Notes under the pieces: model-generated | The model's database searches: none | Told to the model about the DNA's origin: nothing | The model's input: only the letters and a program-made list of their open reading frames with translations | Made by a program: the position numbers and the translations under genes | Source: a virus | Taxonomy: Duplodnaviria; Heunggongvirae; Uroviricota; Caudoviricetes | Virus record (IMG/VR): IMGVR_UViG_3300026302_000005 | Location: 1-64,000 of that record | Length of the DNA: 64,000 nt | Strand: one strand, 5' to 3' | Part shown: piece by piece, positions 3,163-29,686 of the stretch | How the letters are laid out: each line of letters opens with the position of its first letter | Numbering within the stretch: position 1 is the first letter of the stretch

Positions 3163-3192
3163 GTGAAGTGCATCACCACCCAGGGTATCCTC

Positions 3193-3777
3193 ATGAATAC
3201 GCACGACACGGCCCCGAATTTTCTGTTGCTAGACTGGCCGGTATTCGATTTTCAAACGGACCTGACACGGCTGCTGGCCTCCAATGCCATCTCCTGGAGC
3301 CAGAACCAGATATGCCTGAACACCGTGGCAGATCAACCAGACAACATACATCTCGGGGTCGGCAACCTCTATTATGATTGGAAGAATGCCATAGACGTGG
3401 TTCGTGAAGACGGACACATCGAACGGCATGTCCCCAAGTTGGAGAATCCCCTATTGGATTCAGACTTCACCATGCTGTGCTCACAATTCAAAGATACTGC
3501 TTTTGAAGAGGCAATGCTACAGCTATCTCGACACTATCGGGTGGGACGAGTCCGGTTGATGAAAATGTCGATGAAGTCTTGTCTGACCTGGCATGTGGAT
3601 TATTCACCACGTATCCACTATCCAATCATCACCGGCCCCGGTGCCATGATGGTGATTGATACCGAGGTGATGCATCTGGAGCAAAACCAATGGTATTGGA
3701 CCAACACGACGAGGCACCACACCGCACTCAATGGTTCATCGGCAGAACGAATTCATCTGGTGGCTGCGGTAGAATGA
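3193..3777 (+). CDS. 2OG-Fe(II) dioxygenase, aspartyl/asparaginyl beta-hydroxylase-like
   Basis: WHVD...RIHYPI...HHTALN...RIHLV cupin facial triad and 2OG-binding Arg. Confidence 0.8.
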   Translation: MNTHDTAPNFLLLDWPVFDFQTDLTRLLASNAISWSQNQICLNTVADQPDNIHLGVGNLYYDWKNAIDVVREDGHIERHVPKLENPLLDSDFTMLCSQFKDTAFEEAMLQLSRHYRVGRVRLMKMSMKSCLTWHVDYSPRIHYPIITGPGAMMVIDTEVMHLEQNQWYWTNTTRHHTALNGSSAERIHLVAAVE

Positions 3778-4358
3778 CAGATGTTCGCACCTATACCCAA
3801 GATCACCAGGACATTGCAACTGTCAAATCCGAGGTCATGGAACTGTTTCAATCATCCAAGAACGACGCGAAGGCACCGAACTATACCGCAAACCGACTTG
3901 ATCTTGATTCGCTGATCGCCCTCACTGTTCACCGGGTTGGTGGATTGATCGTCAGCTTCTCATCGATCCTTCACCGCCCGCTGTTCAACAACTCAGTGCG
4001 AATACTGAACCGGTATTACCAACACCCCAGCCTGCGTGATATCAGAGCTTTACCAAATGGCATGCGTGAGGACGTGGTGTTGGGGGTCAACCAACAGATC
4101 GAGATTGCAACCAGCCTGGGATACGATTTGGTGTTCATCAGTCGGGAAGGTCGTAATCCCGCCGCACTGCGTTTCTGGATCAACAACTACGATCAGGAAT
4201 GGACCGTATCACCGTATCTCCATCAGGTGTGTGCGGCGGATTGTCCGGAGTGTTATCAATGGATAATGTATCATCGACTAACCCCTGGAATTGACCCATA
4301 CACGGTGCTAAATACCTTCATATCCAGAGAAGAATTCGAGGACAGATATCGATCATGA
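3774..4358 (+). CDS. Hypothetical protein, possibly GNAT-like fold
   Basis: ATGA overlap with neighbours; RILNRYY..P.LR segment; Cys cluster near the C-terminus. Confidence 0.6.
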   Translation: MTDVRTYTQDHQDIATVKSEVMELFQSSKNDAKAPNYTANRLDLDSLIALTVHRVGGLIVSFSSILHRPLFNNSVRILNRYYQHPSLRDIRALPNGMREDVVLGVNQQIEIATSLGYDLVFISREGRNPAALRFWINNYDQEWTVSPYLHQVCAADCPECYQWIMYHRLTPGIDPYTVLNTFISREEFEDRYRS

Positions 4359-5296
4359 AGTATGTAGAGTTGCCCCCCGAGGAGAACACTTTTTCCAATA
4401 TCATGGTCGATATCACGCACAAGTGCAACATGGAATGCGCCAACTGCTATATCCCAAACCGGGACATCCCGGACATGGACCTCGACCGGCTCTATGATGC
4501 GCTGAAACGATTGCCAACACGAACCTACATCCGTCTGGTAGGTGCAGAGCCTACCATGCACCCCAACCTGGCTGACATCATTTCAATGGTCAAGAAGCTC
4601 GGCCACCGCCCCAGTGTGACAACCAATGGGTTGAAACTGGCCAATATGAAGTATCTGGAGACGCTACGGGATGCCGGTCTACGCCTACTTCTGTTGAGCA
4701 TGAATGGAGCCGACGAGGATCACGTATATCGTGATCTCGACAATGGCAACTGGGCGACCGTTAAGGTGCGAGCCCTACGCAACATCATGAAGCTGCGTCT
4801 CCCATTCAATACCGGGACCATCATTGCCCGTGACGTAAACCCCCATTCGATATCCCGGCAAATCGAAGTGGTCACCAAAATTGCTCTGGAACTGGGCATC
4901 AACTTCGACACCACGCCTCCATACAACCACATCACACCAGTGATCCGTATGAAGAGCGTAGGGGTGATCGGGCGAAACATGGGTGGTAGCTGCTACTACC
5001 CGTTGCAGGAGCTTGCGCAGTTGACCGCTGACCAGCTTGGTATCCCATACGATACGATCATCAACAGCCCCACAACGTCCGGAGTGGTCAAGTCGGGCAA
5101 CTACAACACCGCTCTTACGGGATTGATGATCCCGGTCCCCACCGAAGCCGGGACGATCCTGCTTCGCTTTACCGACTGGGGGATTGACGATGATGGAGTG
5201 GTGGACGGTGGTAACCCAAATCGGGGACGACTGACCGAGGATTTCAAAATCGCTCCCTTCTTTGAGCACGTCAAACTAAACGAGTTTGGATACTGA
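4355..5296 (+). CDS. Radical SAM protein (MoaA-like)
   Basis: CNMECANC motif, GAEP and TTNG motifs. Confidence 0.9.
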   Translation: MKYVELPPEENTFSNIMVDITHKCNMECANCYIPNRDIPDMDLDRLYDALKRLPTRTYIRLVGAEPTMHPNLADIISMVKKLGHRPSVTTNGLKLANMKYLETLRDAGLRLLLLSMNGADEDHVYRDLDNGNWATVKVRALRNIMKLRLPFNTGTIIARDVNPHSISRQIEVVTKIALELGINFDTTPPYNHITPVIRMKSVGVIGRNMGGSCYYPLQELAQLTADQLGIPYDTIINSPTTSGVVKSGNYNTALTGLMIPVPTEAGTILLRFTDWGIDDDGVVDGGNPNRGRLTEDFKIAPFFEHVKLNEFGY

Positions 5297-5297
5297 C

Positions 5298-5996
5298 ATG
5301 ACCCGACCCTTCCCGTTCAAGATTGCATTCTCTGATCTGGTAAACCATTCGATGGCCGATCTGCTGAACCAGTATGGACTGATCCATGTATACGATACGC
5401 CAAAACTAACGGCGGATCAGTATCATCAGTGGGGAGAGCAGATCGGGAAGCTGTTGATCGGCCATCGACATCTGGCAAACGCCGAAGGGACCGTGCATGA
5501 CATCAGCAGTGGTGCTGCCCTCCAGGACAAGTCGCTACCATGGCACAACGACTACAGCTATGGTCGGGGGGACTACTTCGGATCGGCCCTCTACAACGTC
5601 GAGAACGGCCACATGTGTGACACAGAGTTCGCCGACATGACCATCATCCCGGAAGAGATCAAGGCCGTCTACAGGGGTGTGATAGCGAGCCATCGCATAC
5701 CCGATTCGTTTACCCAGGAGTTCACAGATCGAGAGCGTGAAATTCTGGATCGTCGATATGCAAAGCACCCGCTGGTGTCTGTTCATCCCAATGGCATGGA
5801 AACCGTGTATTGCTCCCCAGCGTCTATCGTAGATGATATCGATATCGCCCCAATCGTAGACTGGAGCGAGCGGCATTCATACGTCCACAAGTGGGTTGAT
5901 GGCGATCTGCTGTTCTGGGATAACCGTCAGCTTATGCACCGTCGCGGCCCATTACTGGGACCTCGCAGAATGTGGCGGATTCAGTTTATCCTATAG
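5298..5996 (+). CDS. TauD/TfdA-family dioxygenase
   Basis: WHND motif and HKW..GDLLFWDNR..MHRR C-terminal signature. Confidence 0.85.
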   Translation: MTRPFPFKIAFSDLVNHSMADLLNQYGLIHVYDTPKLTADQYHQWGEQIGKLLIGHRHLANAEGTVHDISSGAALQDKSLPWHNDYSYGRGDYFGSALYNVENGHMCDTEFADMTIIPEEIKAVYRGVIASHRIPDSFTQEFTDREREILDRRYAKHPLVSVHPNGMETVYCSPASIVDDIDIAPIVDWSERHSYVHKWVDGDLLFWDNRQLMHRRGPLLGPRRMWRIQFIL

Positions 5997-6477
5997 GATT
6001 AAACAGCCTGTAAAGCTCTTCCACCGGCACATCAAAACCAATGCTCAGCACAATACGGCGTTTATCATATGCCGTATTGTCAACACGGTGTTCTGCATGG
6101 ATCGACAGACCCAGGGCAGTCTTTAAGTTTGCCCGCTGAACAAGCTCTGTCCCATCCATGAAGTCAACGAAGCTCCGGTCGTTGTCGGCCTGCACCGCGA
6201 TATTGATCGCAGACACCCGAGTTGGAAAGTAGTCGGTGTCCCTGTGGGTCGTGCTTAACATCCCGGGGGGAACAACCACCAACGCGATGATGCTGTATGG
6301 ATGTGGCAGTCGATCAAGAATCGGTTTAAGACGCTTGAGGTCATCGGCAGTTTCAAATTCGAACCACTTGATGTCTTTGAATGGTTCATCGATCTGTTCT
6401 CCCATATTCAACAACCAGTTCTGGTTCTCTTCATCAAGGAGGCTAATCGATAGGTCGGGGATCGGGAAGCATTTCAT
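5986..6477 (-). CDS. Small 2OG-Fe(II)/cupin dioxygenase-like protein
   Basis: HRD...INI...HRVDN...RIVLSI pattern. Confidence 0.7.
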   Translation of the reverse strand: MKCFPIPDLSISLLDEENQNWLLNMGEQIDEPFKDIKWFEFETADDLKRLKPILDRLPHPYSIIALVVVPPGMLSTTHRDTDYFPTRVSAINIAVQADNDRSFVDFMDGTELVQRANLKTALGLSIHAEHRVDNTAYDKRRIVLSIGFDVPVEELYRLFNPIG

Positions 6478-8555
6478 GTCTGTTCTATGTCCTCAATAGC
6501 TCTCAGGCGGGTTTGCACATTCAAGATACCATCATCATGATGGGCAACTCGAATCTGTCCGTTGGTCTGTTCGAACCACTGCACACCCCGCGCATTGGCG
6601 GAATGTCCAAGGTTGTAAACAAACGTGTTGGTCTTGATAAACAGGTAATCGTGTCCACCTGCCATAAAATACAGCGCCAGGTCTCTTGATACTGTCCCAG
6701 GGAACGAATTGGTCGATCCGAGCCTATCAATACCCATGGCGTATGTGGTATCGGTGTGGTGCAACTCTTGTGTATCGAAATACGTCAACCAATCATACTC
6801 AGTGTCAAACGAGTGAGTGTAAGCCAGTGGCCCTCGCACCACAACGTTCTGATTGAAAATCAACAGATCATCAATGACAGCCGGATCGACATCAACAAAG
6901 GTAGCTTTTACGAATTGGGCGAAGTCTGAATAAAATGCATTACGCCGCGTCGTGTCTCCATGAACGAACATCCATCCATTGACCAGTGCATTGATGCGGG
7001 GAGGGTGATCGGGGCTCACGATGCGAACATCGTATACCGGATGGGCATACGCTTTCTTGATGGCATTGGTAAAGCCGGTCCACCACTCGGTGTTGTGTTC
7101 ACGCTGCCAGTTCATGAAACCGTATATGATGGCACTGGCTGGAACCGCATGTTGCCGATTCAGGTATTGCCCAGCAAAATAGACGGTCTTTCCGAGCCAC
7201 AGGATTTGCATCAGTTCGTGATACCACAGAGCCTGGTCAATATCGGCGGCAGTCATGGTGGATGTAGACTTAATGACGGTGCGCTGTTCTGTCTCGTCGG
7301 GGATAGGGGATCGGAGGATCGGTCCAACCGTCCAGGTCAGTCCATACTTCTCATCATCCCGTTTCAGGTTCATTGGAGAGTTCTCCAAAAGCTCCAGCCG
7401 GTTGACATATACGTCAAACGGATTGTTGGTCAACAACCTGTCAATACCGGCGACGAACGAGTCCAGCGTTTCAAGCGGCAATCCAAGAATCATCTCATCG
7501 TAGTATGGGATGTTGTTCTTGGTGAAGTTGTCTGTGATCCACTGGAAATCCGTGGTGATGGACATATTGTGTCGTTTGATAGCTTCCAGCGTTGGGGGAT
7601 GCAATGACTGCAAACTGAATGATCCGCCCATGCTGGTAAGCCCCGCAGCATCAGCCAGTTTAGCAATCTCCATCGTGCGACGTTTGTTGTTCTTGGCATA
7701 TGCCACGATTACGCTATGCAACCGAGTGTCCGACAGCATGGCCTTTCGTGCTATCAGATACTCAATGATTTCAACATCACGTTCCAAGATACCAAAGTTG
7801 GCATCAGCGATCACGATCTCATGTGCGTATTGCAATGCCCATTCGATGTCGTCCTGGATACGCTTCATCGAGAACTTGCGAAGTTTTTCCTCAAGACCCC
7901 AATCACAGAAGGTGCAGGAATACGGGCAACCTCGGTTGGTTTCTATAATGCTGATCAACCGATCATCCCGATTCTCTTGAACCACCCGGTCGTATATTCC
8001 AAGAGTTCCCGGAGATGGAACTTCCATCACCGCCTGATGCTGTATTTGACGTCGGTTTGTGGAATGGTTTACTACCACCCCATCCACCACCCAGTTGTAG
8101 CAATCGGTGAAGTATTCACTGTGCATGATACCGCGTTCCGCCAGTATCTTACGCAGGATCATCTCCAGGGGGATTTCTCCCTCAGACCAAACCAGATAGT
8201 CGTATTGGGGATTGTCGGCAACGAATTTGTCAAATCGATCCTGTCGCTGTGGCACATCCGGGCCCCCAACGATGATGATGACGTTCGGGAACTTCTCCCT
8301 GATACCCTTGGTGAGTTTGTTTGTCCGGACTCGGTTCCACGTATACATGCTGACCAACACCACGTCCGGGATGCCAAACCGGTCTACCCGATCCAGCAGT
8401 TCCATGACCGAGTGGTCATACCGAGTTCCGATATCGGTCAGGTGAAGGTGTTCGTAGACATCAGGGTGTGTGGAAAGGTATGCCCACAACACACCAATGC
8501 TGGATGGTAGGGTTTGTGTCGTCCCCCGGAGTTGAAGACCCCATATATTCAGCAT
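6474..8555 (-). CDS. Cobalamin-binding radical SAM enzyme
   Basis: N-terminal B12-binding region (YTWN...GGPD...SEGE), ETNRGCPYSCTFCDW, DANFG, ILGLP.ET. Confidence 0.9.
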   Translation of the reverse strand: MLNIWGLQLRGTTQTLPSSIGVLWAYLSTHPDVYEHLHLTDIGTRYDHSVMELLDRVDRFGIPDVVLVSMYTWNRVRTNKLTKGIREKFPNVIIIVGGPDVPQRQDRFDKFVADNPQYDYLVWSEGEIPLEMILRKILAERGIMHSEYFTDCYNWVVDGVVVNHSTNRRQIQHQAVMEVPSPGTLGIYDRVVQENRDDRLISIIETNRGCPYSCTFCDWGLEEKLRKFSMKRIQDDIEWALQYAHEIVIADANFGILERDVEIIEYLIARKAMLSDTRLHSVIVAYAKNNKRRTMEIAKLADAAGLTSMGGSFSLQSLHPPTLEAIKRHNMSITTDFQWITDNFTKNNIPYYDEMILGLPLETLDSFVAGIDRLLTNNPFDVYVNRLELLENSPMNLKRDDEKYGLTWTVGPILRSPIPDETEQRTVIKSTSTMTAADIDQALWYHELMQILWLGKTVYFAGQYLNRQHAVPASAIIYGFMNWQREHNTEWWTGFTNAIKKAYAHPVYDVRIVSPDHPPRINALVNGWMFVHGDTTRRNAFYSDFAQFVKATFVDVDPAVIDDLLIFNQNVVVRGPLAYTHSFDTEYDWLTYFDTQELHHTDTTYAMGIDRLGSTNSFPGTVSRDLALYFMAGGHDYLFIKTNTFVYNLGHSANARGVQWFEQTNGQIRVAHHDDGILNVQTRLRAIEDIEQT

Positions 8556-8647: not shown

Positions 8648-8676
8648 TTGACAGATACCGATTCGACTGCTAAATA
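8648..8676 (+). promoter_or_regulatory. Promoter of the tRNA/GluRS operon
   Basis: TTGACA-N17-TAAATA; the -10 element coincides with the late-type TAAATA motif. Confidence 0.7.
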
Positions 8677-8693: not shown

Positions 8694-8766
8694 GCCCTTG
8701 CCGTTTGGATACGGGCCGGGTCTTCTAAGCCAGGGACTGGGGGTTCGAATCCCTCCTGGGGCACCA
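8694..8766 (+). tRNA. tRNA-Arg(UCU), atypical short D arm
   Basis: Acceptor GCCCTTG/CTGGGGC, loop CTTCTAA, T arm GGGGG-TTCGAAT-CCCTC, encoded ACCA. Confidence 0.8.
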
Positions 8767-8886
8767 ACATAGGAATACGATGATGAACAAGTGTGAAGAA
8801 CAAAGACGGGGGACAGAGTAACGGACGGCGAAAGCTGACTGATCTGTTCCCTATGGCCCGCCGCTCTGGTGGGCCTTTTCATTTCT

Positions 8887-8961
8887 GGCCCGTTAGTTTA
8901 ATGGTGAGAATGTCGGCCTTTCAAGCCGAAGAGATGGGATCGTGACCCATACGGGCTACCA
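8887..8961 (+). tRNA. tRNA-Glu(UUC) with non-canonical T loop
   Basis: GGCCCGT/ACGGGCT acceptor, TCGGC-CTTTCAA-GCCGA anticodon arm, T loop ATCGTGA, CCA. Confidence 0.9.
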
Positions 8962-8969
8962 AAAACAAC

Positions 8970-9047
8970 GGCTGCGTAGCATAACTGGAATAGTGCGGCT
9001 CCCTCTCAAGGAGTCAGATGCGGGTTCGAGTCCCGTCGCAGTCACCA
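8970..9047 (+). tRNA. tRNA-Glu(CUC)
   Basis: GGCTGCG/CGCAGTC acceptor, GCTCC-CTCTCAA-GGAGT, GCGGG-TTCGAGT-CCCGT, ACCA. Confidence 0.93.
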
Positions 9048-9064
9048 ACACTTGACTACCTCAC

Positions 9065-9142
9065 GGCGGTGTAGCATAACTGGAATAGTGCCTACGACTT
9101 TCAATCGAAGAGATGCGGGTTCGAGTCCCGTCACCGCTGCCA
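9065..9142 (+). tRNA. tRNA-Glu(UUC)
   Basis: GGCGGTG/CACCGCT acceptor, loop CTTTCAA, canonical T arm, GCCA. Confidence 0.92.
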
Positions 9143-9159
9143 AAATCCTGGAGACCATC

Positions 9160-9345
9160 ATGTCGGTATCATTCGAACGGAAGATGCTGAATCGTAACAA
9201 CCTGTTTGTGGACGATCCACACGACAAGCATCTGGCTACTTCGGCCCAGAAAAAGGCCACGGACGACCGGGACAGAAAGAAGTTGCGGAAGTTCTGGAAA
9301 ACCGATATCAAGGACCAAATCCTTGACCTCGGAGATGAAACGTGA
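9160..9345 (+). CDS. Small hypothetical protein
   Basis: GGAG RBS, ATG 9160, stop overlaps the next start. Confidence 0.6.
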   Translation: MSVSFERKMLNRNNLFVDDPHDKHLATSAQKKATDDRDRKKLRKFWKTDIKDQILDLGDET

Positions 9346-9650
9346 GGACGCTGCTGATATCCACTGCACTCCTTCTATGGCCAGCAATGGCTCATGCGGA
9401 ACTGGTTAATGGCTGGTATACCGTGTATGGATGTGTGTCGGAGACCGAAGACACCTGCACGATGATGGAAGTGTCGGATGTCACAGTGGAAAGCAACGAG
9501 GCGATCATCTTTGTGTGTCGCAACACAAACGAACGTTGGGGATGGGAACAGCAACACGCTTACATCCCGACCACCGATGGAAGACTGGAAAAGGTAACTG
9601 AGTTCATCATTCAGCATGTAAGCTGTGATGGAGAAAACGACGGAGACTGA
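9342..9650 (+). CDS. Hypothetical exported protein
   Basis: Signal peptide ending AMAHA; four Cys; GGAG RBS. Confidence 0.7.
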   Translation: MRTLLISTALLLWPAMAHAELVNGWYTVYGCVSETEDTCTMMEVSDVTVESNEAIIFVCRNTNERWGWEQQHAYIPTTDGRLEKVTEFIIQHVSCDGENDGD

Positions 9651-9652
9651 TC

Positions 9653-10531
9653 ATGTGGAACACACGAATTGCCCCGTCACCAACCGGGGACATGCACCTG
9701 GGAACCGCCAGGACCGCATACTTCAACTGGCTGGCCGCTCGGGCATCCGGTGGCAAGTTCATCCTGCGGATCGATGACACCGATACGGCTCGGAACACGG
9801 ACGCTGCGGTCGATGTGATCTATGCCGCCATGGACTGGCTTGGCCTGGACTACGATGCCGTCTATCGTCAATCAGATCGACTGGACCTGTATCGGTCGTA
9901 TGCTGATGGATTGATCCGGAACCACCTGGCCAAGACCGCCGACAATGGTGCCGTGCTGCTCGATCTACCGGTTGGAAACATGACCGGCATGAAGTGGCAT
10001 GACACGATCAGTGGAGATCAATTCTTCACCGACACGGTGCAAAAGTCTCTGGATCGAGACATCGTGCTAATCAAGGGCGATGGTATGCCGACCTATCACT
10101 TTGCGTCGGTGGTCGATGACATCGATCTGGGCATCAACTGGGTGATCCGTGGTATCGATCATTTCAGCAACACGTTCGTCCACACCATGATCGGGCATGC
10201 CATCGGGTGCGATCATCCGAACTATGCCCACCTGGGACTGATCATGAAGGACAAGAAGAAGCTGTCCAAGCGGGATGCCGCCTCCAGCCTGCTGGGGTAT
10301 CGGGATGTCGGGTATGATCGGGATGCGGTGTTGAACTTCATCCTCCGGATGGGATGGGGTCCGAGCGTGGACGACAAGACTACGGCTGTCCTGGATCGGG
10401 ATGCCGCACTTCGGTTGTTCCTGGATGGTGGAAGAATGCGGTCTTCACCGGCCAACTTCGATCAAATCAAGCTGGACAGCTTTGACCGCAAATACAAGGG
10501 GCGGAAGGAACATCTGGCTCTTGTGGGGTAA
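9653..10531 (+). CDS. gltX: Glutamyl-tRNA synthetase, catalytic part only (292 aa)
   Basis: TRIAPSPTG, HLGT (HIGH motif), LRIDDTD, PTYHFASVVDD, VIRG.DH, KKLSKR; ends after SPANFDQIKL with no anticodon-binding domains. Confidence 0.9.
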   Translation: MWNTRIAPSPTGDMHLGTARTAYFNWLAARASGGKFILRIDDTDTARNTDAAVDVIYAAMDWLGLDYDAVYRQSDRLDLYRSYADGLIRNHLAKTADNGAVLLDLPVGNMTGMKWHDTISGDQFFTDTVQKSLDRDIVLIKGDGMPTYHFASVVDDIDLGINWVIRGIDHFSNTFVHTMIGHAIGCDHPNYAHLGLIMKDKKKLSKRDAASSLLGYRDVGYDRDAVLNFILRMGWGPSVDDKTTAVLDRDAALRLFLDGGRMRSSPANFDQIKLDSFDRKYKGRKEHLALVG

Positions 10532-10654
10532 CCAATCCCCAGCCCAGGGCTTTGGGCTACAGGTGCAGCGGGGTGCAAATCCCCAACCTAGCGACGGGTC
10601 GACTCCAAGCAGGGCATAGTGCAACAACCTGGTCTTAACCTTTAGGAGATCATC

Positions 10655-11041
10655 ATGATCCAAATCGACATCAAGCGAGCCGTGTCTGAGGGCCGCACCG
10701 TGAAGTTCACACGCTACCACGATGGCAATCTGTGGTATGAGACCGAGTTCGGCGAAGCCTTCCCAGTTCCACCCAGTGATATCGCCGGTGCTACGTTCAA
10801 CGCGACCGAGAAGGCGATCCTATTGATGCGGTATATGCGGATGTGGAACCAGACCGGGAAGTCCGAAATGGAACAACTGACCTACCGTCTCTATGACGAT
10901 CCGGATGGATTGAAGGTCAGCAACATCTCGATCACTCCGGGTGCGAGTCCCGAATCGGTAGAACGTATGGCCGAGAACATCAACCGGGCCCTGGATGAAA
11001 TCGAGTCCGGACAGGCCGAAGTCGTCGAACTAGAAGATTGA
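10655..11041 (+). CDS. Hypothetical phage protein
   Basis: AGGAG RBS, 128-aa ORF. Confidence 0.7.
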   Translation: MIQIDIKRAVSEGRTVKFTRYHDGNLWYETEFGEAFPVPPSDIAGATFNATEKAILLMRYMRMWNQTGKSEMEQLTYRLYDDPDGLKVSNISITPGASPESVERMAENINRALDEIESGQAEVVELED

Positions 11042-11068
11042 TCTGTCGGATTGATGCGGGCTTTTGGG

Positions 11069-11074
11069 TAAATA
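11069..11074 (+). promoter_or_regulatory. Late-type promoter TAAATA
   Basis: TAAATA 20 nt upstream of the ATG; the same motif precedes structural genes. Confidence 0.6.
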
Positions 11075-11093
11075 TTGCTCAGGAGACCCACAC

Positions 11094-14000
11094 ATGCGTT
11101 TGACCGAATTTCTTCAACCCGCCCCTGTTGTTGCACCGCCCACGATGGGGGTGCGAGAGGTTCCCATTCCTATGTGGGTGCTTGAGGGCTCTGACGCGGA
11201 TTATGAAGCCTTTTTGGTCAAACGTCGGCTGAATACGATTGCTTCCACTTTGACCGAAGCGGCAATAGATCGCTATCGCCCGATGCTGGAGGTATTCCGT
11301 AAGATCGACGGCATGTCGCCTACCAACACCATTTCTGGTAACTCCTGGCACGACATTGCCACTAAACAACTCAACTGGGCCATGACGGTGCTCAAGCGTG
11401 AGGATCGAATCGTATGGTTCTTGCGGTTGCTCAAGGTCATGTATCTCGGCATGATCGCATCCAAGCCCGTCGCAGATGGGCCGCAGCAGGCAGAAATCAT
11501 CAATTTCATCAACAAGGAATATGCCCGGGCCAAAGCCGGGGTCAACAAGGCTATTGGTGGCAAAGTTGATGATGACGCTGTGTATGCAGCAGAGCAGATC
11601 AAGAACCTCAACCAGTTTCAGACCGATATGGAACACTTCATGTCGATGGATATCCCACAGATTCAGCAAACCACATGGGGTCCACAACTTCCCCGTGATC
11701 TGATGCAATCGTTCCGTGCCATCGAGAAGGAATGGAGCGCCCGTCGGTCATCAGTCGTCGATATGAGTCAAGACGACAAAAGTGAAGTCACCACGATCAT
11801 CGAGTTCCCCGACGGTTCCGCCTGGGTTAACCTGAACCGGTCTTCTTGCTCGCTGGAAGCCGATGCCATGGGACACTGCGGAAACACGGCTTCCAACCGG
11901 TCATACGAAACCGTTCTGTCCTATCGGACTCCGGTGAATGAGCATGGCAGACCACGTGATCCCAAAGATGGCGGAACACATTGGCGTCCACGTCTGACAT
12001 TCATTCTTCACAAAGAAACTGGGATGTTGGGAGAGATGAAGGGGCGGGCCAACAACAAGCCCAAGGATGAACTACACCCGTTCATCATCGCATTGCTTCG
12101 TTCCGATTTGGTCAAAGGTATCACCGGTGGTGGATACGCACCAGAGAACAACTTCGAAATGTCCGATCTTGATCCTGAGGTTGCAGCGGCTCTGATCAAA
12201 GAGAAACCCGCACTGGGAACTGTCAGTCAGCACTTCGCAGTCGAGGGCCGCAGTGAATCTCTTATGAACCGAGTTCAGGGTATCCTGGATCAATACGAAG
12301 TCAGCAACAATGGTTTCACCGAGGATGGGAAATACCTCATCATTGATACGCACAACGATTTTGCCGATTTTGCGGAGCGTTGGGGTAGCCGCACCGAAAC
12401 CTATATTGCCGGAATCATGAGCGGCTCTGATAGCATGTATGATGGGGATTATCACAGCGGCGACCGTAGTGATCGGGAAAGCCTCCTGGAGGATTTGGTC
12501 AAGCTACGCCCTGATATCCTGGAACACCTCAAGGCTTACATGAAGTGGACCTATCCGGAGCAGTTCGGCATCAAGTCTCAGGATGACGATCAGCAGGATG
12601 ATGACCAAAATGACGACGACCAGGATGATGACTACGGAGATGATGCAGAATATGACATCGATGATCTAGGCGACATTGTTCGATGCCTGGAGGATGAAAG
12701 CGACGACCTATACGATCAGATCGGTAATGCCATTTCTGATGGACATCGATCTGGTGCTGAGTCTGAAATGTATGAGGCATTCTGGAAGTGGCTGGATGAT
12801 CCATTCGAAGGTCATGGCACTGCCATAATTGTGGATGAAAAGAACAAATACGACTCCAAGGTATACACGGTGTTGCCGTTTGATGAACTGATCGGATTCC
12901 TGCCGCCCGAGGATGATGAATTTGTCGAAACAGTATCCGGTAGTGGATGGTCAGAGTGGCTTGAGGTCAACAAGATCGATGAACCCTATTATGGGTGGTC
13001 CGGATATGATGAACATGTCGCCCTAGAAAATCTGGGCGATCACTTTGACATCCCTGATGTTCCGGATTACGAGATTCCGGTTGCTGGTAACGCCAACATC
13101 AAAGATCGCGATGCTATCTATCAGGCTATTCAGGAGCTAGGTGGGGAAGAGATTCCGAACACGAAAGCACGTTCCAAGAACTGGAAAACTCCAGAGGGTA
13201 TTCGGGTGCTGGATATCGATGCCATGAACGGTGTTATCGTCATGAACGTCTACTTCAATGCTGGCGATAAAAGCACGGAAGAGATGGCTGCAACCTATGC
13301 GACGTTCCTGCGTTTCCTGGCTATGGTTGGTCGGTCACGCGGTTGCTCAATCGTGCTCCGCACCCACGAGAAGCATTTGATGAAACATGATCTGGTCGGC
13401 GAGACCGGGTTCACTCAAGCCAAGCATGGATACCTTCGCTACGATCCACCCAAAGCCGTCAAGGAATCGGATGAACCGGTTCGAATCAAACTACGTGGCC
13501 GTGCAGTCCGGGATTCCGATGGCGATGTAGATGGCTTCCTGCATGATCTGGAGCAGGCTACACAGGAACATCCGTGGAACCACAAGATGCGGATATTCGG
13601 CAGCGTTGGGATCGAGGTAAGTCCGTGGGGCACCGGCATCCACCTGGGTGATATCGTAACGCTTGGAGATGCCCGCCAGGGTCATGGAACGAACGCCCTC
13701 AAGCTGCTCACACAACTGGCCGATCAGCATGGGGTAACGATCTCCGGTGTAGCCAAAGCCTACAGTAACAAGCCCGGTCACATCCAGGGCACCAGTCGGC
13801 TATTGAAGTGGTATCAGAAGCATGGGTTCAAGAGAACCGGTGGATATCCGGAAGATGGCTATGACATCGAATACAAGCCCCGGGCAGTTACCGAGGCTCC
13901 GATTGATGACTATGGATTGATCGGCAACTGGGGCGATAATGTGAAGTCCAACAGCTTCATGAACCCACAGGATCGCAAGATCATCCAGAGCCCCAACCTG

Positions 14001-28732: not shown

Positions 28733-29686
28733 TCAGGGTTCACTTGGTGTATTTATCCGTTCCTTCCGAGTCATCACATCGGTAACACATGAACAGCGTG
28801 GTTTGTCACAAATGATGGGTTCCGTGGGAAAAACATAGGTCCCCTTGATATTTCCAATCTCTCCACCGACGCGGCAGATACCCCGGAATATATCCCCGTT
28901 GGGTTTGACTGCGATCTGCTGAATGCCGGTCCAACATTTCCATCCAAACCACTGGTTATCACGGTCCAGTATGAACCTGGATGGAGCTTTGACCACACTG
29001 GTGCCATCGTCCATGACGGCTCGCATCATACCCCGGTAGAGATGACCCTCCGCCTTCCGACCTCGACCAGAGGACGCCCGCATACGGGTCATCTGATCTT
29101 CCGTATACGGATATAGCTCTGATTGGAAATTGATCCGCAGCGGTTTCAAAACGACCGATACGTTCCCGAGACTGGCCAGAACAGTGGCCTTCTGACAAAT
29201 CTCATCAAACAGTTCCGGGATCATGGTGAAATTGACATGGACCGGAACAGTGATTGGGATTGCCGCCACGACCTTGCTGAAATGATCCAGGTCAGCAAAC
29301 TCTTGATGGAAAGTCAGATGAACCTTGTCAAAAAACTTACCGAACTTCTCCCAAAACCGAATAGTCCGTGATCCATTCGATATGATGGAATGGTAGAACC
29401 CTTTTTCAGCCCCATATTGAATGATCTCTTCAAACCCTGGATACTGCGTGGGCTCACCACCCGTATACTGGATGATTACGGAAAAACCCTTGTAGTGCTC
29501 CGCAACCGCATCCAGGAATCGTTTCACATCATCCTTCGGTAGCCAGCCCAGTGATCCACTATGCAAGGAGTCCGGGCAATACGAACAGGCATAGTTGCAC
29601 ACATTACCCAGACTGATCTCAATCACAATCTGAGTGTCGGCCAACGGGTGGGTATGCTCGATTCGGATTACTTCTGGGGTGTTCAT
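28733..29686 (-). CDS. Radical SAM protein with C-terminal Cys cluster (SPASM/twitch-like)
   Basis: CNYACSYC, GGEPT, SNGSR, C..G...C...C....CSC. Confidence 0.9.
   Translation of the reverse strand: MNTPEVIRIEHTHPLADTQIVIEISLGNVCNYACSYCPDSLHSGSLGWLPKDDVKRFLDAVAEHYKGFSVIIQYTGGEPTQYPGFEEIIQYGAEKGFYHSIISNGSRTIRFWEKFGKFFDKVHLTFHQEFADLDHFSKVVAAIPITVPVHVNFTMIPELFDEICQKATVLASLGNVSVVLKPLRINFQSELYPYTEDQMTRMRASSGRGRKAEGHLYRGMMRAVMDDGTSVVKAPSRFILDRDNQWFGWKCWTGIQQIAVKPNGDIFRGICRVGGEIGNIKGTYVFPTEPIICDKPRCSCVTDVMTRKERINTPSEP

Follow-up and report, generated by a model that had tools for sequence, protein, structure and literature searches.

What can a glutamyl-tRNA synthetase (GluRS) that has no anticodon-binding domain do for a phage, and why does its gene lie downstream of three tRNA-Glu genes? 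GluQ, the well-known natural short paralogue, gave up 3'-end charging, and bacterial GluRS relies strongly on the anticodon. The locus that raises the question lies in a 64,000-nucleotide stretch of DNA (the window), which is the first 64 kb of the 375,937-base virus record IMGVR_UViG_3300026302_000005 (93% complete by CheckV). Sequence comparisons show that the truncation of the 292-amino-acid (aa) synthetase encoded there is genuine and that this GluRS variant without anticodon domains is conserved in jumbo phages and large mobile elements; here it is accompanied by a codon-matched putative attenuator and by the three tRNA-Glu genes. We think it probable that the enzyme is a backup GluRS core, gated by the attenuator, that would charge tRNA-Glu for translation through contacts with the acceptor and D stems.

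The synthetase has HLGT at residues 15 to 18 and KKLSKR at residues 202 to 207, and its sole Pfam match is tRNA-synt_1c; the open reading frame (ORF), the Pfam match and the alignment bear out a preliminary description of the locus as encoding a 292-aa GluRS with HIGH-like and KKLSKR motifs and no anticodon-binding domains. The protein comprises a Rossmann fold, a shortened connective insert, a stem-contact fold and a basic C-terminal helix, and in alignment it ends at about Escherichia coli GltX residue 321, the catalytic-domain boundary (the catalytic domain of Thermus thermophilus GluRS is residues 1 to 322; PMC3927822; here and below, statements from cited papers rest on the accessible portions of those papers). 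The preliminary description had the protein ending right after the SPANFD..KL element, which is correct as to the domain boundary, but the chain continues for 18 residues as a predicted basic helix (271 to 291). The motif of this last helix is present in 101/120 homologues, the set used throughout being the best 120 of 6,784 homologues (277 to 330 aa, about 52 to 82% identity to the query). The predicted structure has a mean pLDDT (predicted local distance difference test score) of 96, and its best match in a viral structure library is a GluRS.

These homologues indicate that the truncation is genuine and old. All 120 terminate 2 to 35 residues beyond the position of K280, while R5, A7, S9, H15, G17, D41, R166 and K206 are invariant in 120/120, Y148 is kept in 116/120, and a family-specific loop, GWGP..DDK, is found in 105/120. 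The gene recurs in contigs from other studies, where the differences listed are mostly at third codon positions and the only indel among them (at 8961) is outside the synthetase gene; contigs of two of these studies span the synthetase stop codon. Among the data sets listed as carrying the stretch, none is RNA. Sequencing error or stop read-through is therefore rejected, and the error absent in homologues that the preliminary description had allowed for is not what is seen. The window gene ends in TAA. Thinning 101 related loci at 85% left a non-redundant set of 73 in which the short gene is closed, and their stop codons are 31 TAA, 31 TGA and 11 TAG; two of the 73, L321 and L324, have low scores and might lie outside the family.

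A split gene is likewise rejected, as the anticodon domain was not found anywhere in the genome. A profile search of the genome with Anticodon_2 gave no match even at E 10, with control genomes positive, and the C-terminal helical anticodon-binding domain (PF19269) is absent from the protein, the genome and the longer clade members P0245, P0249, P0250, P0261 and P0270. A profile search recovered a few longer clade members, and the five longest examined carry unrelated tails and no anticodon domain; a search for longer homologues returned no family member, with best BLASTP identities mostly 29 to 40%. Among 23 related phage records, Anticodon_2 occurs in one, inside a separate 495-aa full-length GluRS. 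A single-sequence viral scan for relatives found nothing, and the best match among named phage records, at 40.5%, is not a close one.

The connective insert is also reduced. About 40 residues of the connective/zinc insert are missing, with a median inter-motif spacing of 122, compared to 162 in GltX and 164 in GluQ. We considered whether this deletion is unique to the phage family and rejected it, since full-length GltX proteins of 399 to 449 aa share the deletion; those that were placed in the tree fall outside the phage clade. A subclade of shorter viral cores (L049-L079, L089, L096 and L323; 256 to 285 aa, about 35% identical to the query) has an additional cut in the connective insert, and some of these phages have few tRNA genes.

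The relationship to GltX and GluQ was addressed by profile scores, motifs and phylogeny. With NCBIfam models, the synthetase scores 255.6 bits against gltX_bact (TIGR00464), below the curated cutoff of 289.95 (a relative reaches 282.3 bits), and 159.5, 149.7 and 142.4 bits against GluQ models with cutoffs of 250, 276.7 and 256, respectively; missing the GluQ cutoffs is a weak test alone, as several alphaproteobacterial short paralogues used as GluQ also fall below the TIGR03838 cutoff. Sequence matches in the PDB rank GltX (E. coli 8i9i and T. thermophilus 1j09) far above YadB (1nzj). Motifs were compared among the 120 family members, 107 GltX proteins and 13 GluQ proteins (E. coli GluQ and 12 short cellular paralogues). 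RG.DH..NT is present in 120/120 family members, 79/107 GltX and 0/13 GluQ; H.G..RT in 118/120, 97/107 and 1/13; and the stem-contact GW in 117/120, 60/107 and 0/13. The GluQ-type RI[ED]D[ILV]D shows the reverse pattern (0/120, 0/107 and 13/13), and the CxC zinc motif is absent from 120/120 family members and present in 9/13 GluQ.

For a quick tree, 204 sequences were reduced to 130 rows by thinning at 80% identity, and the 53 rows of short viral type came out as a single clade. A more careful tree has 71 rows, hand-chosen from the quick-tree set together with 11 full-length GltX proteins with a short insert. A scan of 5 of the 64 parts of a genome collection returned full-length GltX, which served only as tree references. 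In the 71-row tree the 21 short viral-type rows are one clade (100/100), as are the 13 GluQ (100/100), and the short viral clade groups with rows of GltX1 type (98/94) and apart from the alphaproteobacterial GluRS2-type rows. The synthetase is inside the GluQ clade in no tree. A grouping of GluQ together with the short clade, on the other hand, survives approximately unbiased (AU) tests on the quick trees (p 0.64 and 0.59), so that the phylogeny separates the synthetase from the GluQ clade and places it with GltX1-type rows while leaving a joint GluQ group standing. Taken together, the scores, motifs and tree support the earlier view that the motifs are GltX-like rather than GluQ-like, and by sequence the synthetase is not a GluQ member and keeps GluRS features that GluQ has lost. 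It lacks the anticodon domain of GltX and differs from GluQ in motifs and clade, and we judge it rather likely to work like a backup GltX and not like GluQ.

The synthetase gene is the last feature of a compact array, all on the plus strand:

8648 to 8676, plus strand: promoter-like site by pattern, TTGACA, 17 nucleotides (nt), TAAATA; putative promoter
8694 to 8766, plus strand: degenerate tRNA-Arg(UCU)-like gene ending in CCA; found by ARAGORN at relaxed thresholds only, no Rfam match
8780 to 8821, plus strand: 13-codon leader ORF, MMNKCEEQRRGTE, with a ribosome-binding site and GAA-GAA at codons 6 and 7
8808 to 8852, plus strand: protector helix, 8808-8817 with 8843-8852, from folding and covariation; a predicted antiterminator arm lies inside, at about 8822-8830
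8855 to 8886, plus strand: intrinsic terminator, hairpin 8855-8875 (-16.3 kcal/mol) and a T-rich tail up to the first tRNA-Glu
8887 to 8961, plus strand: first tRNA-Glu(UUC), by ARAGORN and Rfam; Glu-type core with U11-A24, U13·G22 and a 4-nt variable loop
8970 to 9047, plus strand: second tRNA-Glu(CUC), by ARAGORN and Rfam; atypical core with C11-G24 and a 5-nt variable loop, G2·U71 and U13·G22 kept
9065 to 9142, plus strand: third tRNA-Glu(UUC), by ARAGORN and Rfam; atypical core with C11-G24, a 5-nt variable loop and G73, G1·U72 and U13·G22 kept
9160 to 9345, plus strand: 61-aa ORF; sub-threshold DUF3350 match only, in no neighbor cluster of related genes
9342 to 9650, plus strand: 102-aa ORF with a hydrophobic, signal-peptide-like N terminus; its start overlaps the stop of the 61-aa ORF
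9653 to 10531, plus strand: catalytic-core-only GluRS, 292 aa, TAA stop

The 510 bases between the third tRNA-Glu and the synthetase gene contain the 61-aa and 102-aa ORFs, and the latter has no Pfam or PHROG match and belongs to no neighbor cluster beside related genes. All three ORFs are preceded by ribosome-binding sites, there is no TAAATA between 8880 and 9660, and no plus-strand terminator-like site is found from 8876 to 11200. From this layout of promoter, terminator and ribosome-binding sites, and from the overlapping stop and start, a single transcript probably runs from the promoter to the synthetase. Sites of the TTGACA-17-TAAATA type number 16 in the genome, and 16/16 lie outside predicted genes, as against 75% of sampled positions that lie inside genes; a sigma-70 scanner missed the site at 8648-8676 because it demands a final T.

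The region between this promoter and the first tRNA-Glu has the features of an attenuator: a short leader with cognate codons, whose translation is predicted, under a putative promoter, a terminator before the first controlled gene, and a protector helix. As a control, the genome has 25 terminator-like sites, of which four have a short leader ORF, and two of these four abut tRNA clusters: the EE leader before tRNA-Glu, and a CAG-CAA-CAA (QQQ) leader before three tRNA-Gln genes. This Gln leader (L012:4940-5062, minus strand; about 262.95-263.06 kb of the genome) has a promoter of the same layout, 13 codons with three Gln codons, a protector helix and a terminator, followed by the three tRNA-Gln genes; the two leaders are alike in promoter type, leader length and spacing, and the Gln cluster has no synthetase. 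A 15-codon Arg/Lys-rich ORF, without a T-tailed terminator, lies 5' of a tRNA-Arg(UCG, ACG) pair (genome 228342-228470, minus strand, in L010).

Related loci carry similar leaders. Glu-codon leaders are present at 9 of the 14 related loci examined and missing at the other 5; tandem-GAA leaders (codons 5 to 7) with terminators precede tRNA-Glu at L241, L246, L258 and L263 (L241 and L246 being near-identical), and L024 has a Pro/Glu leader with a terminator. In an alignment of six hand-picked leaders, from which the helix itself was drawn, the protector helix is paired in 46/48 cells and has both-side changes at 7/8 pairs, with 33 to 52% pairing when slid. Of the 49 viral stretches that match a 16-base leader pattern, none has tRNA-Glu in its locus. 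The tRNA-like gene 5' of the leader also has counterparts: L258 has a regular tRNA-Arg(UCU) at the same place, and the related genes in L020 and L262 are followed on their 3' side by oddly arranged RNAs with the same UCU loop. The last 28 bases of the degenerate gene in the window are common to the phage tRNA-Thr(UGU).

The switch was modeled by folding the leader with a ribosome covering 13 nt from the A site. In the window, modeled antiterminator pairing of the terminator 5' arm is at most 0.15 with the ribosome at codons 1 to 6, rises to 0.64 to 0.86 at codons 7 to 12, and is 0.17 to 0.20 at the last codon and stop.

The three tRNA-Glu genes, with anticodons UUC, CUC and UUC as first described, are confirmed by ARAGORN and Rfam, and at the ARAGORN default threshold there are no others in the genome. 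In a related strain (run X3), 712 other bases are inserted at 8959-8961, the end of the first tRNA-Glu. That gene and L258:559-636 share a T loop beginning with A54, and the window tRNA also has U58. E. coli GluRS reads U34, U35, C36 and A37, together with U11-A24, U13-G22:A46 and the absence of base 47 (PMC9976931). All three phage tRNAs have G1, G2, C3-G70, a G·U at pair 1 or 2, and U13·G22, and this set, which was assembled post hoc, singles them out from all other tRNAs of the phage; it is not universal, because the tRNA-Glu genes of L241 have C13. Among 33 tRNA-Glu near related genes, 31 have U11, making C11-G24 with a 5-base variable loop rare there, and 26 have a G·U at pair 1 or 2, versus 35/134 of the other tRNAs.

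A Sphingomonas host-type tRNA-Glu shows the same G1, G2·U71, C3-G70 and U13·G22 set, and the phage enzyme would therefore probably charge host tRNA-Glu too; this host comparison rests on one Sphingomonas genome, the host-type pattern having matched 1/5 genomes. An orthogonal charging module, as proposed initially, is accordingly not supported as stated: orthogonality may hold one way at most, with the second and third phage tRNA-Glu dependent on the phage enzyme. The phage anticodon arms differ from those of host-type tRNA-Glu, with A38 instead of C38 and other stems.

In the explanation that we favor, transcription would start at 8648-8676 and by default stop at the 8855-8875 terminator. A shortage of charged tRNA-Glu, whether from cleavage of host tRNA, inhibition of host GluRS or simple demand, would leave a ribosome waiting at GAA-GAA; the waiting ribosome would open the protector helix, the antiterminator would form, and polymerase would read into the tRNA-Glu genes, the two small ORFs and the synthetase. 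The enzyme would then glutamylate the phage tRNA-Glu, including the two with cores departing from the bacterial GluRS identity set, and without anticodon reading the phage would be free to alter the anticodon arms. The sensor argues for a translation role because a ribosome stall reports the charged-tRNA level, and the idea of a phage Glu-charging module for translation thus gains support from the predicted Glu-codon leader. An active catalytic core is plausible because there are precedents: an engineered truncated E. coli GluRS still favors tRNA-Glu over tRNA-Gln (PMC2777447), and a cysteinyl-tRNA synthetase (CysRS) variant without an anticodon domain serves its own tRNA via the first base pair (PMC5389517). 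Possible drains on Glu-tRNA include Cas13a, which cleaves tRNA-Glu(UUC) among others (PMC11042736), and HipA, which inactivates GltX at S239 (10.1101/2021.04.14.439929); by analogy, tRNA cleavage, HipA or plain demand may each trigger the leader alike.

Several observations weigh against this explanation. Within the model, the window leader without a ribosome gives 0.54, the first GAA opens the switch only when the cover is widened to 16 nt, and the opening range also takes in Gln, Arg, Gly and Thr codons. The switch is clean only in the window; it is partial in L258 and in the Gln leader (which peaks near 0.5), L241 stays at or below 0.36, L263 shows no fall at the stop, and L024 is flat. The leaders of L019, L020, L021 and L023 have three Glu codons and no T-tailed terminator. 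Fidelity without the anticodon is not assured, because E. coli GluRS depends strongly on it (PMC9976931), and the first four acceptor pairs of phage tRNA-Val(UAC) are identical to those of the first tRNA-Glu. At 60/73 related loci there is no tRNA-Glu within 2.5 kb, at 42/73 there is no tRNA of any kind in that range, and some carrier phages are tRNA-poor, with one (G067), four (G071) or seven (G069) Rfam matches.

Many of the 73 loci have short flanks. Where tRNA genes are found within 2.5 kb (31/73), Glu is the commonest (13), followed by Arg (10), with tRNA-Asp at 4/73 and tRNA-Gln at 3/73. Any one neighbor protein is shared by at most 4 of 74 loci. Members of the family are also encoded by a 128-kb Methylobacterium plasmid and by Variovorax megaplasmids. 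The link of the family to tRNA-Glu is real but restricted to a minority of loci, and part of the family may do something else.

What else it might do is best considered from the predominance of loci without a tRNA-Glu neighbor, together with anticodon-less tRNA-Glu look-alikes at 2/73 loci (L282:2147-2222, about 1.8 kb upstream, and L076:7453-7526, about 0.7 kb downstream), which have a Glu-type D arm and a 4-nt loop replacing the anticodon loop. Both would suit a synthetase making Glu-RNA, from tRNA-Glu or from such look-alikes, for a nonribosomal reaction such as peptide, protein or DNA modification; phage Mom modifies DNA with Gly-tRNA (PMC13219725), and the present genome has a weak Mom-family match and a short glycyl-tRNA synthetase (GlyRS) core. 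Yet genome-wide scans (ORFs of at least 110 aa) found no lantibiotic dehydratase or glutamyl-tRNA reductase among the Pfam matches, no neighbor protein is widespread at the loci, the window tRNAs have normal anticodon loops, and the leader would report on ribosomal decoding. The nonribosomal chemistry raised in the preliminary description therefore lacks a partner enzyme here and fits a minority of related loci only, and we regard it as unlikely.

Without anticodon domains, C36 and G36 would be indistinguishable, and the enzyme could be nondiscriminating, also or mainly making Glu-tRNA-Gln for the host amidotransferase route. The EEQ motif in the leaders of the window, L241, L246 and L258 is compatible with this, as is U13 in 2/3 phage tRNA-Gln. 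The tree position with GltX1-type and not GluRS2-type rows argues otherwise, as do U1-A72 in all three phage tRNA-Gln compared to G1 in all three tRNA-Glu, the scarcity of tRNA-Gln near related genes (3/73, versus 13/73 for tRNA-Glu), and the placement of the Gln cluster under its own leader without a synthetase; we consider a nondiscriminating enzyme quite improbable.

The HipA target serine (E. coli S239, here S205) is kept in 116/120 homologues. The enzyme is thus not HipA-resistant by substitution, which leaves the suggested bypass of defenses aimed at GluRS unsupported as far as it would rest on mutation, and retention of the serine would suit a decoy that sequesters a HipA-type kinase or other GluRS-directed toxin and spares host GltX. 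HipA phosphorylates GltX at S239; GltX is also a reported target of Caulobacter HipA1 and HipA2, although for HipA2 one report says otherwise, and HipA action would also trigger the leader; the accessible text of the same source (10.1101/2021.04.14.439929) gives no case of HipA in phage defense. As a part of the KMSKS-type catalytic loop, the serine is found in ordinary GluRS too, and the invariant Glu- and ATP-site residues would be needless in a pure decoy, leaving this role with little probability.

There is little more to be said, and with still lower probability, for a core nearly inactive alone, either a decaying relic or dependent on a trans-acting anticodon-binding partner: the free distal domain stimulates a C-truncated E. 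coli GluRS (to judge from the title of a cited paper), deletion of the anticodon domain alone lowered the activity of one CysRS (PMC5389517), and one related gene, L029, is shortened to 230 aa, but the genome has no Anticodon_2 match, the single instance in related phages is in a separate GluRS, no partner gene is conserved, and conservation across the 120 homologues argues against decay. Least probable of all is a GluQ-like modifier glutamylating queuosine 34 of tRNA-Asp, which would fit the similar length and loss of anticodon domains (PMC9437257), the AU tests and the few loci near tRNA-Asp, but not the better gltX_bact score (by about 100 bits), the missed GluQ cutoffs, the missing GluQ motifs, the position outside the GluQ clade in every tree, or the distance of about 245 kb to the phage's two tRNA-Asp genes.

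The genome as a whole is that of a jumbo myophage, marked by T4-type major capsid, portal, tail sheath and terminase genes. It has 48 tRNA genes by ARAGORN at the default threshold and a permuted transfer-messenger RNA (tmRNA), and encodes a CCA-adding enzyme, Thg1, three RNA ligases, a Ro60/TROVE protein and a release factor 1 fragment (171 aa). The permuted tmRNA, which we take to be an alphaproteobacterial sign, and close homologues in Rhodobacterales assemblies suggest that the host is an alphaproteobacterium. A cluster of radical S-adenosylmethionine (SAM), B12-radical-SAM, TauD and Asp/Asn-hydroxylase-like genes (window 3163-8555 and 28736-29686) adjoins the tRNA unit and is not conserved beside related synthetase genes. 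Genes for CUA-anticodon tRNAs, possible amber suppressors, are found at genome positions 301027-301103 and 281598-281683 (minus strand), in L014 and L013, the second at relaxed thresholds only; TAG ends 34/395 predicted genes.

The short GlyRS core (about 249 aa; L010:14539-15285, minus strand; about 236.5-237.3 kb of the genome) is closest to dimeric (alpha2-type) GlyRS and ends without an anticodon-binding domain. It is not beside tRNA-Gly genes, and a tRNA-Thr(UGU) lies about 0.9 kb downstream. The Mom-family match, 28.1 bits against a cutoff of 27.1, is in a 578-aa protein (L006:12978-14711, minus strand), to which the GlyRS core could, by analogy with Mom's use of Gly-tRNA (PMC13219725), supply Gly-tRNA. 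A more ambitious reading, which we offer tentatively, is that a catalytic-domain-only GluRS is accurate enough for translation on acceptor and D-stem signals alone, acts on tRNAs poorly read by the host enzyme, and is switched on by stalling as a cassette under defense or demand; together with the short GlyRS core it might represent a living class of anticodon-blind enzymes, of the kind that has been proposed for the early code, now serving as an inducible counterdefense.

We found no paper on phage GluRS without anticodon domains, nor on attenuator leaders before phage tRNA genes, in a search that took in neither most subscription journals nor any supplements. The accessible text of a jumbo-phage survey (PMC7824862) has neither glutamyl nor attenuation terms, and that of a review of aminoacyl-tRNA synthetase duplication (PMC9437257), AARS Online (PMC11580382) and the XacN1 paper (PMC5852040) names no such GluRS family. 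Database names for homologues are plain glutamyl-tRNA synthetase, and gene tables of huge-phage surveys may list such genes in the same way. If a widespread natural core does charge tRNA-Glu, it would provide a direct test, inside a modern cell, of the old proposal about early synthetases that accurate coding needs no more than acceptor and D-stem signals. From the leader one could read at what times a phage runs short of Glu-tRNA, a point relevant to the reasons for which phages have tRNA genes, and an anticodon-blind enzyme/tRNA pair would be a scaffold for genetic code expansion.

Among known systems, phage tRNAs that counter anticodon nucleases (PMC10264068) likewise have anticodon arms differing from those of the host; here a synthetase and a putative on-demand switch accompany the tRNAs, and the main text of that paper, as accessible, contains neither 'synthetase' nor 'aminoacyl'. 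The CysRS* and selC* tRNA pair of Desulfobacterales (PMC5389517) is cellular, uses cysteine and acts in opal suppression, whereas the phage case is viral, widespread, leader-gated by prediction and concerned with glutamate and sense codons. With bacterial GltX (TIGR00464; 8i9i and 1j09) the phage core shares the Rossmann fold, the HIGH- and KMSKS-type motifs, the Glu-site residues, RG.DH..NT and the stem-contact GW; it differs in the missing anticodon-binding part, the insert shorter by about 40 residues without a zinc motif, the GWGP..DDK loop and the basic last helix. GluQ/YadB (TIGR03838, PRK05710 and 1nzj) is also a GluRS catalytic-domain paralogue of about 300 aa without an anticodon-binding domain, but the phage core is in a separate clade, has GltX-type motifs, keeps the stem-contact fold, is viral, and is linked to tRNA-Glu and a Glu-codon leader. 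Finally, the trp, his and pheST attenuators consist of a short translated leader with tandem cognate codons, a protector, an antiterminator and an intrinsic terminator. The phage leader has the same predicted parts, but its first controlled genes are tRNA genes, and the species that it would sense is charged tRNA-Glu.

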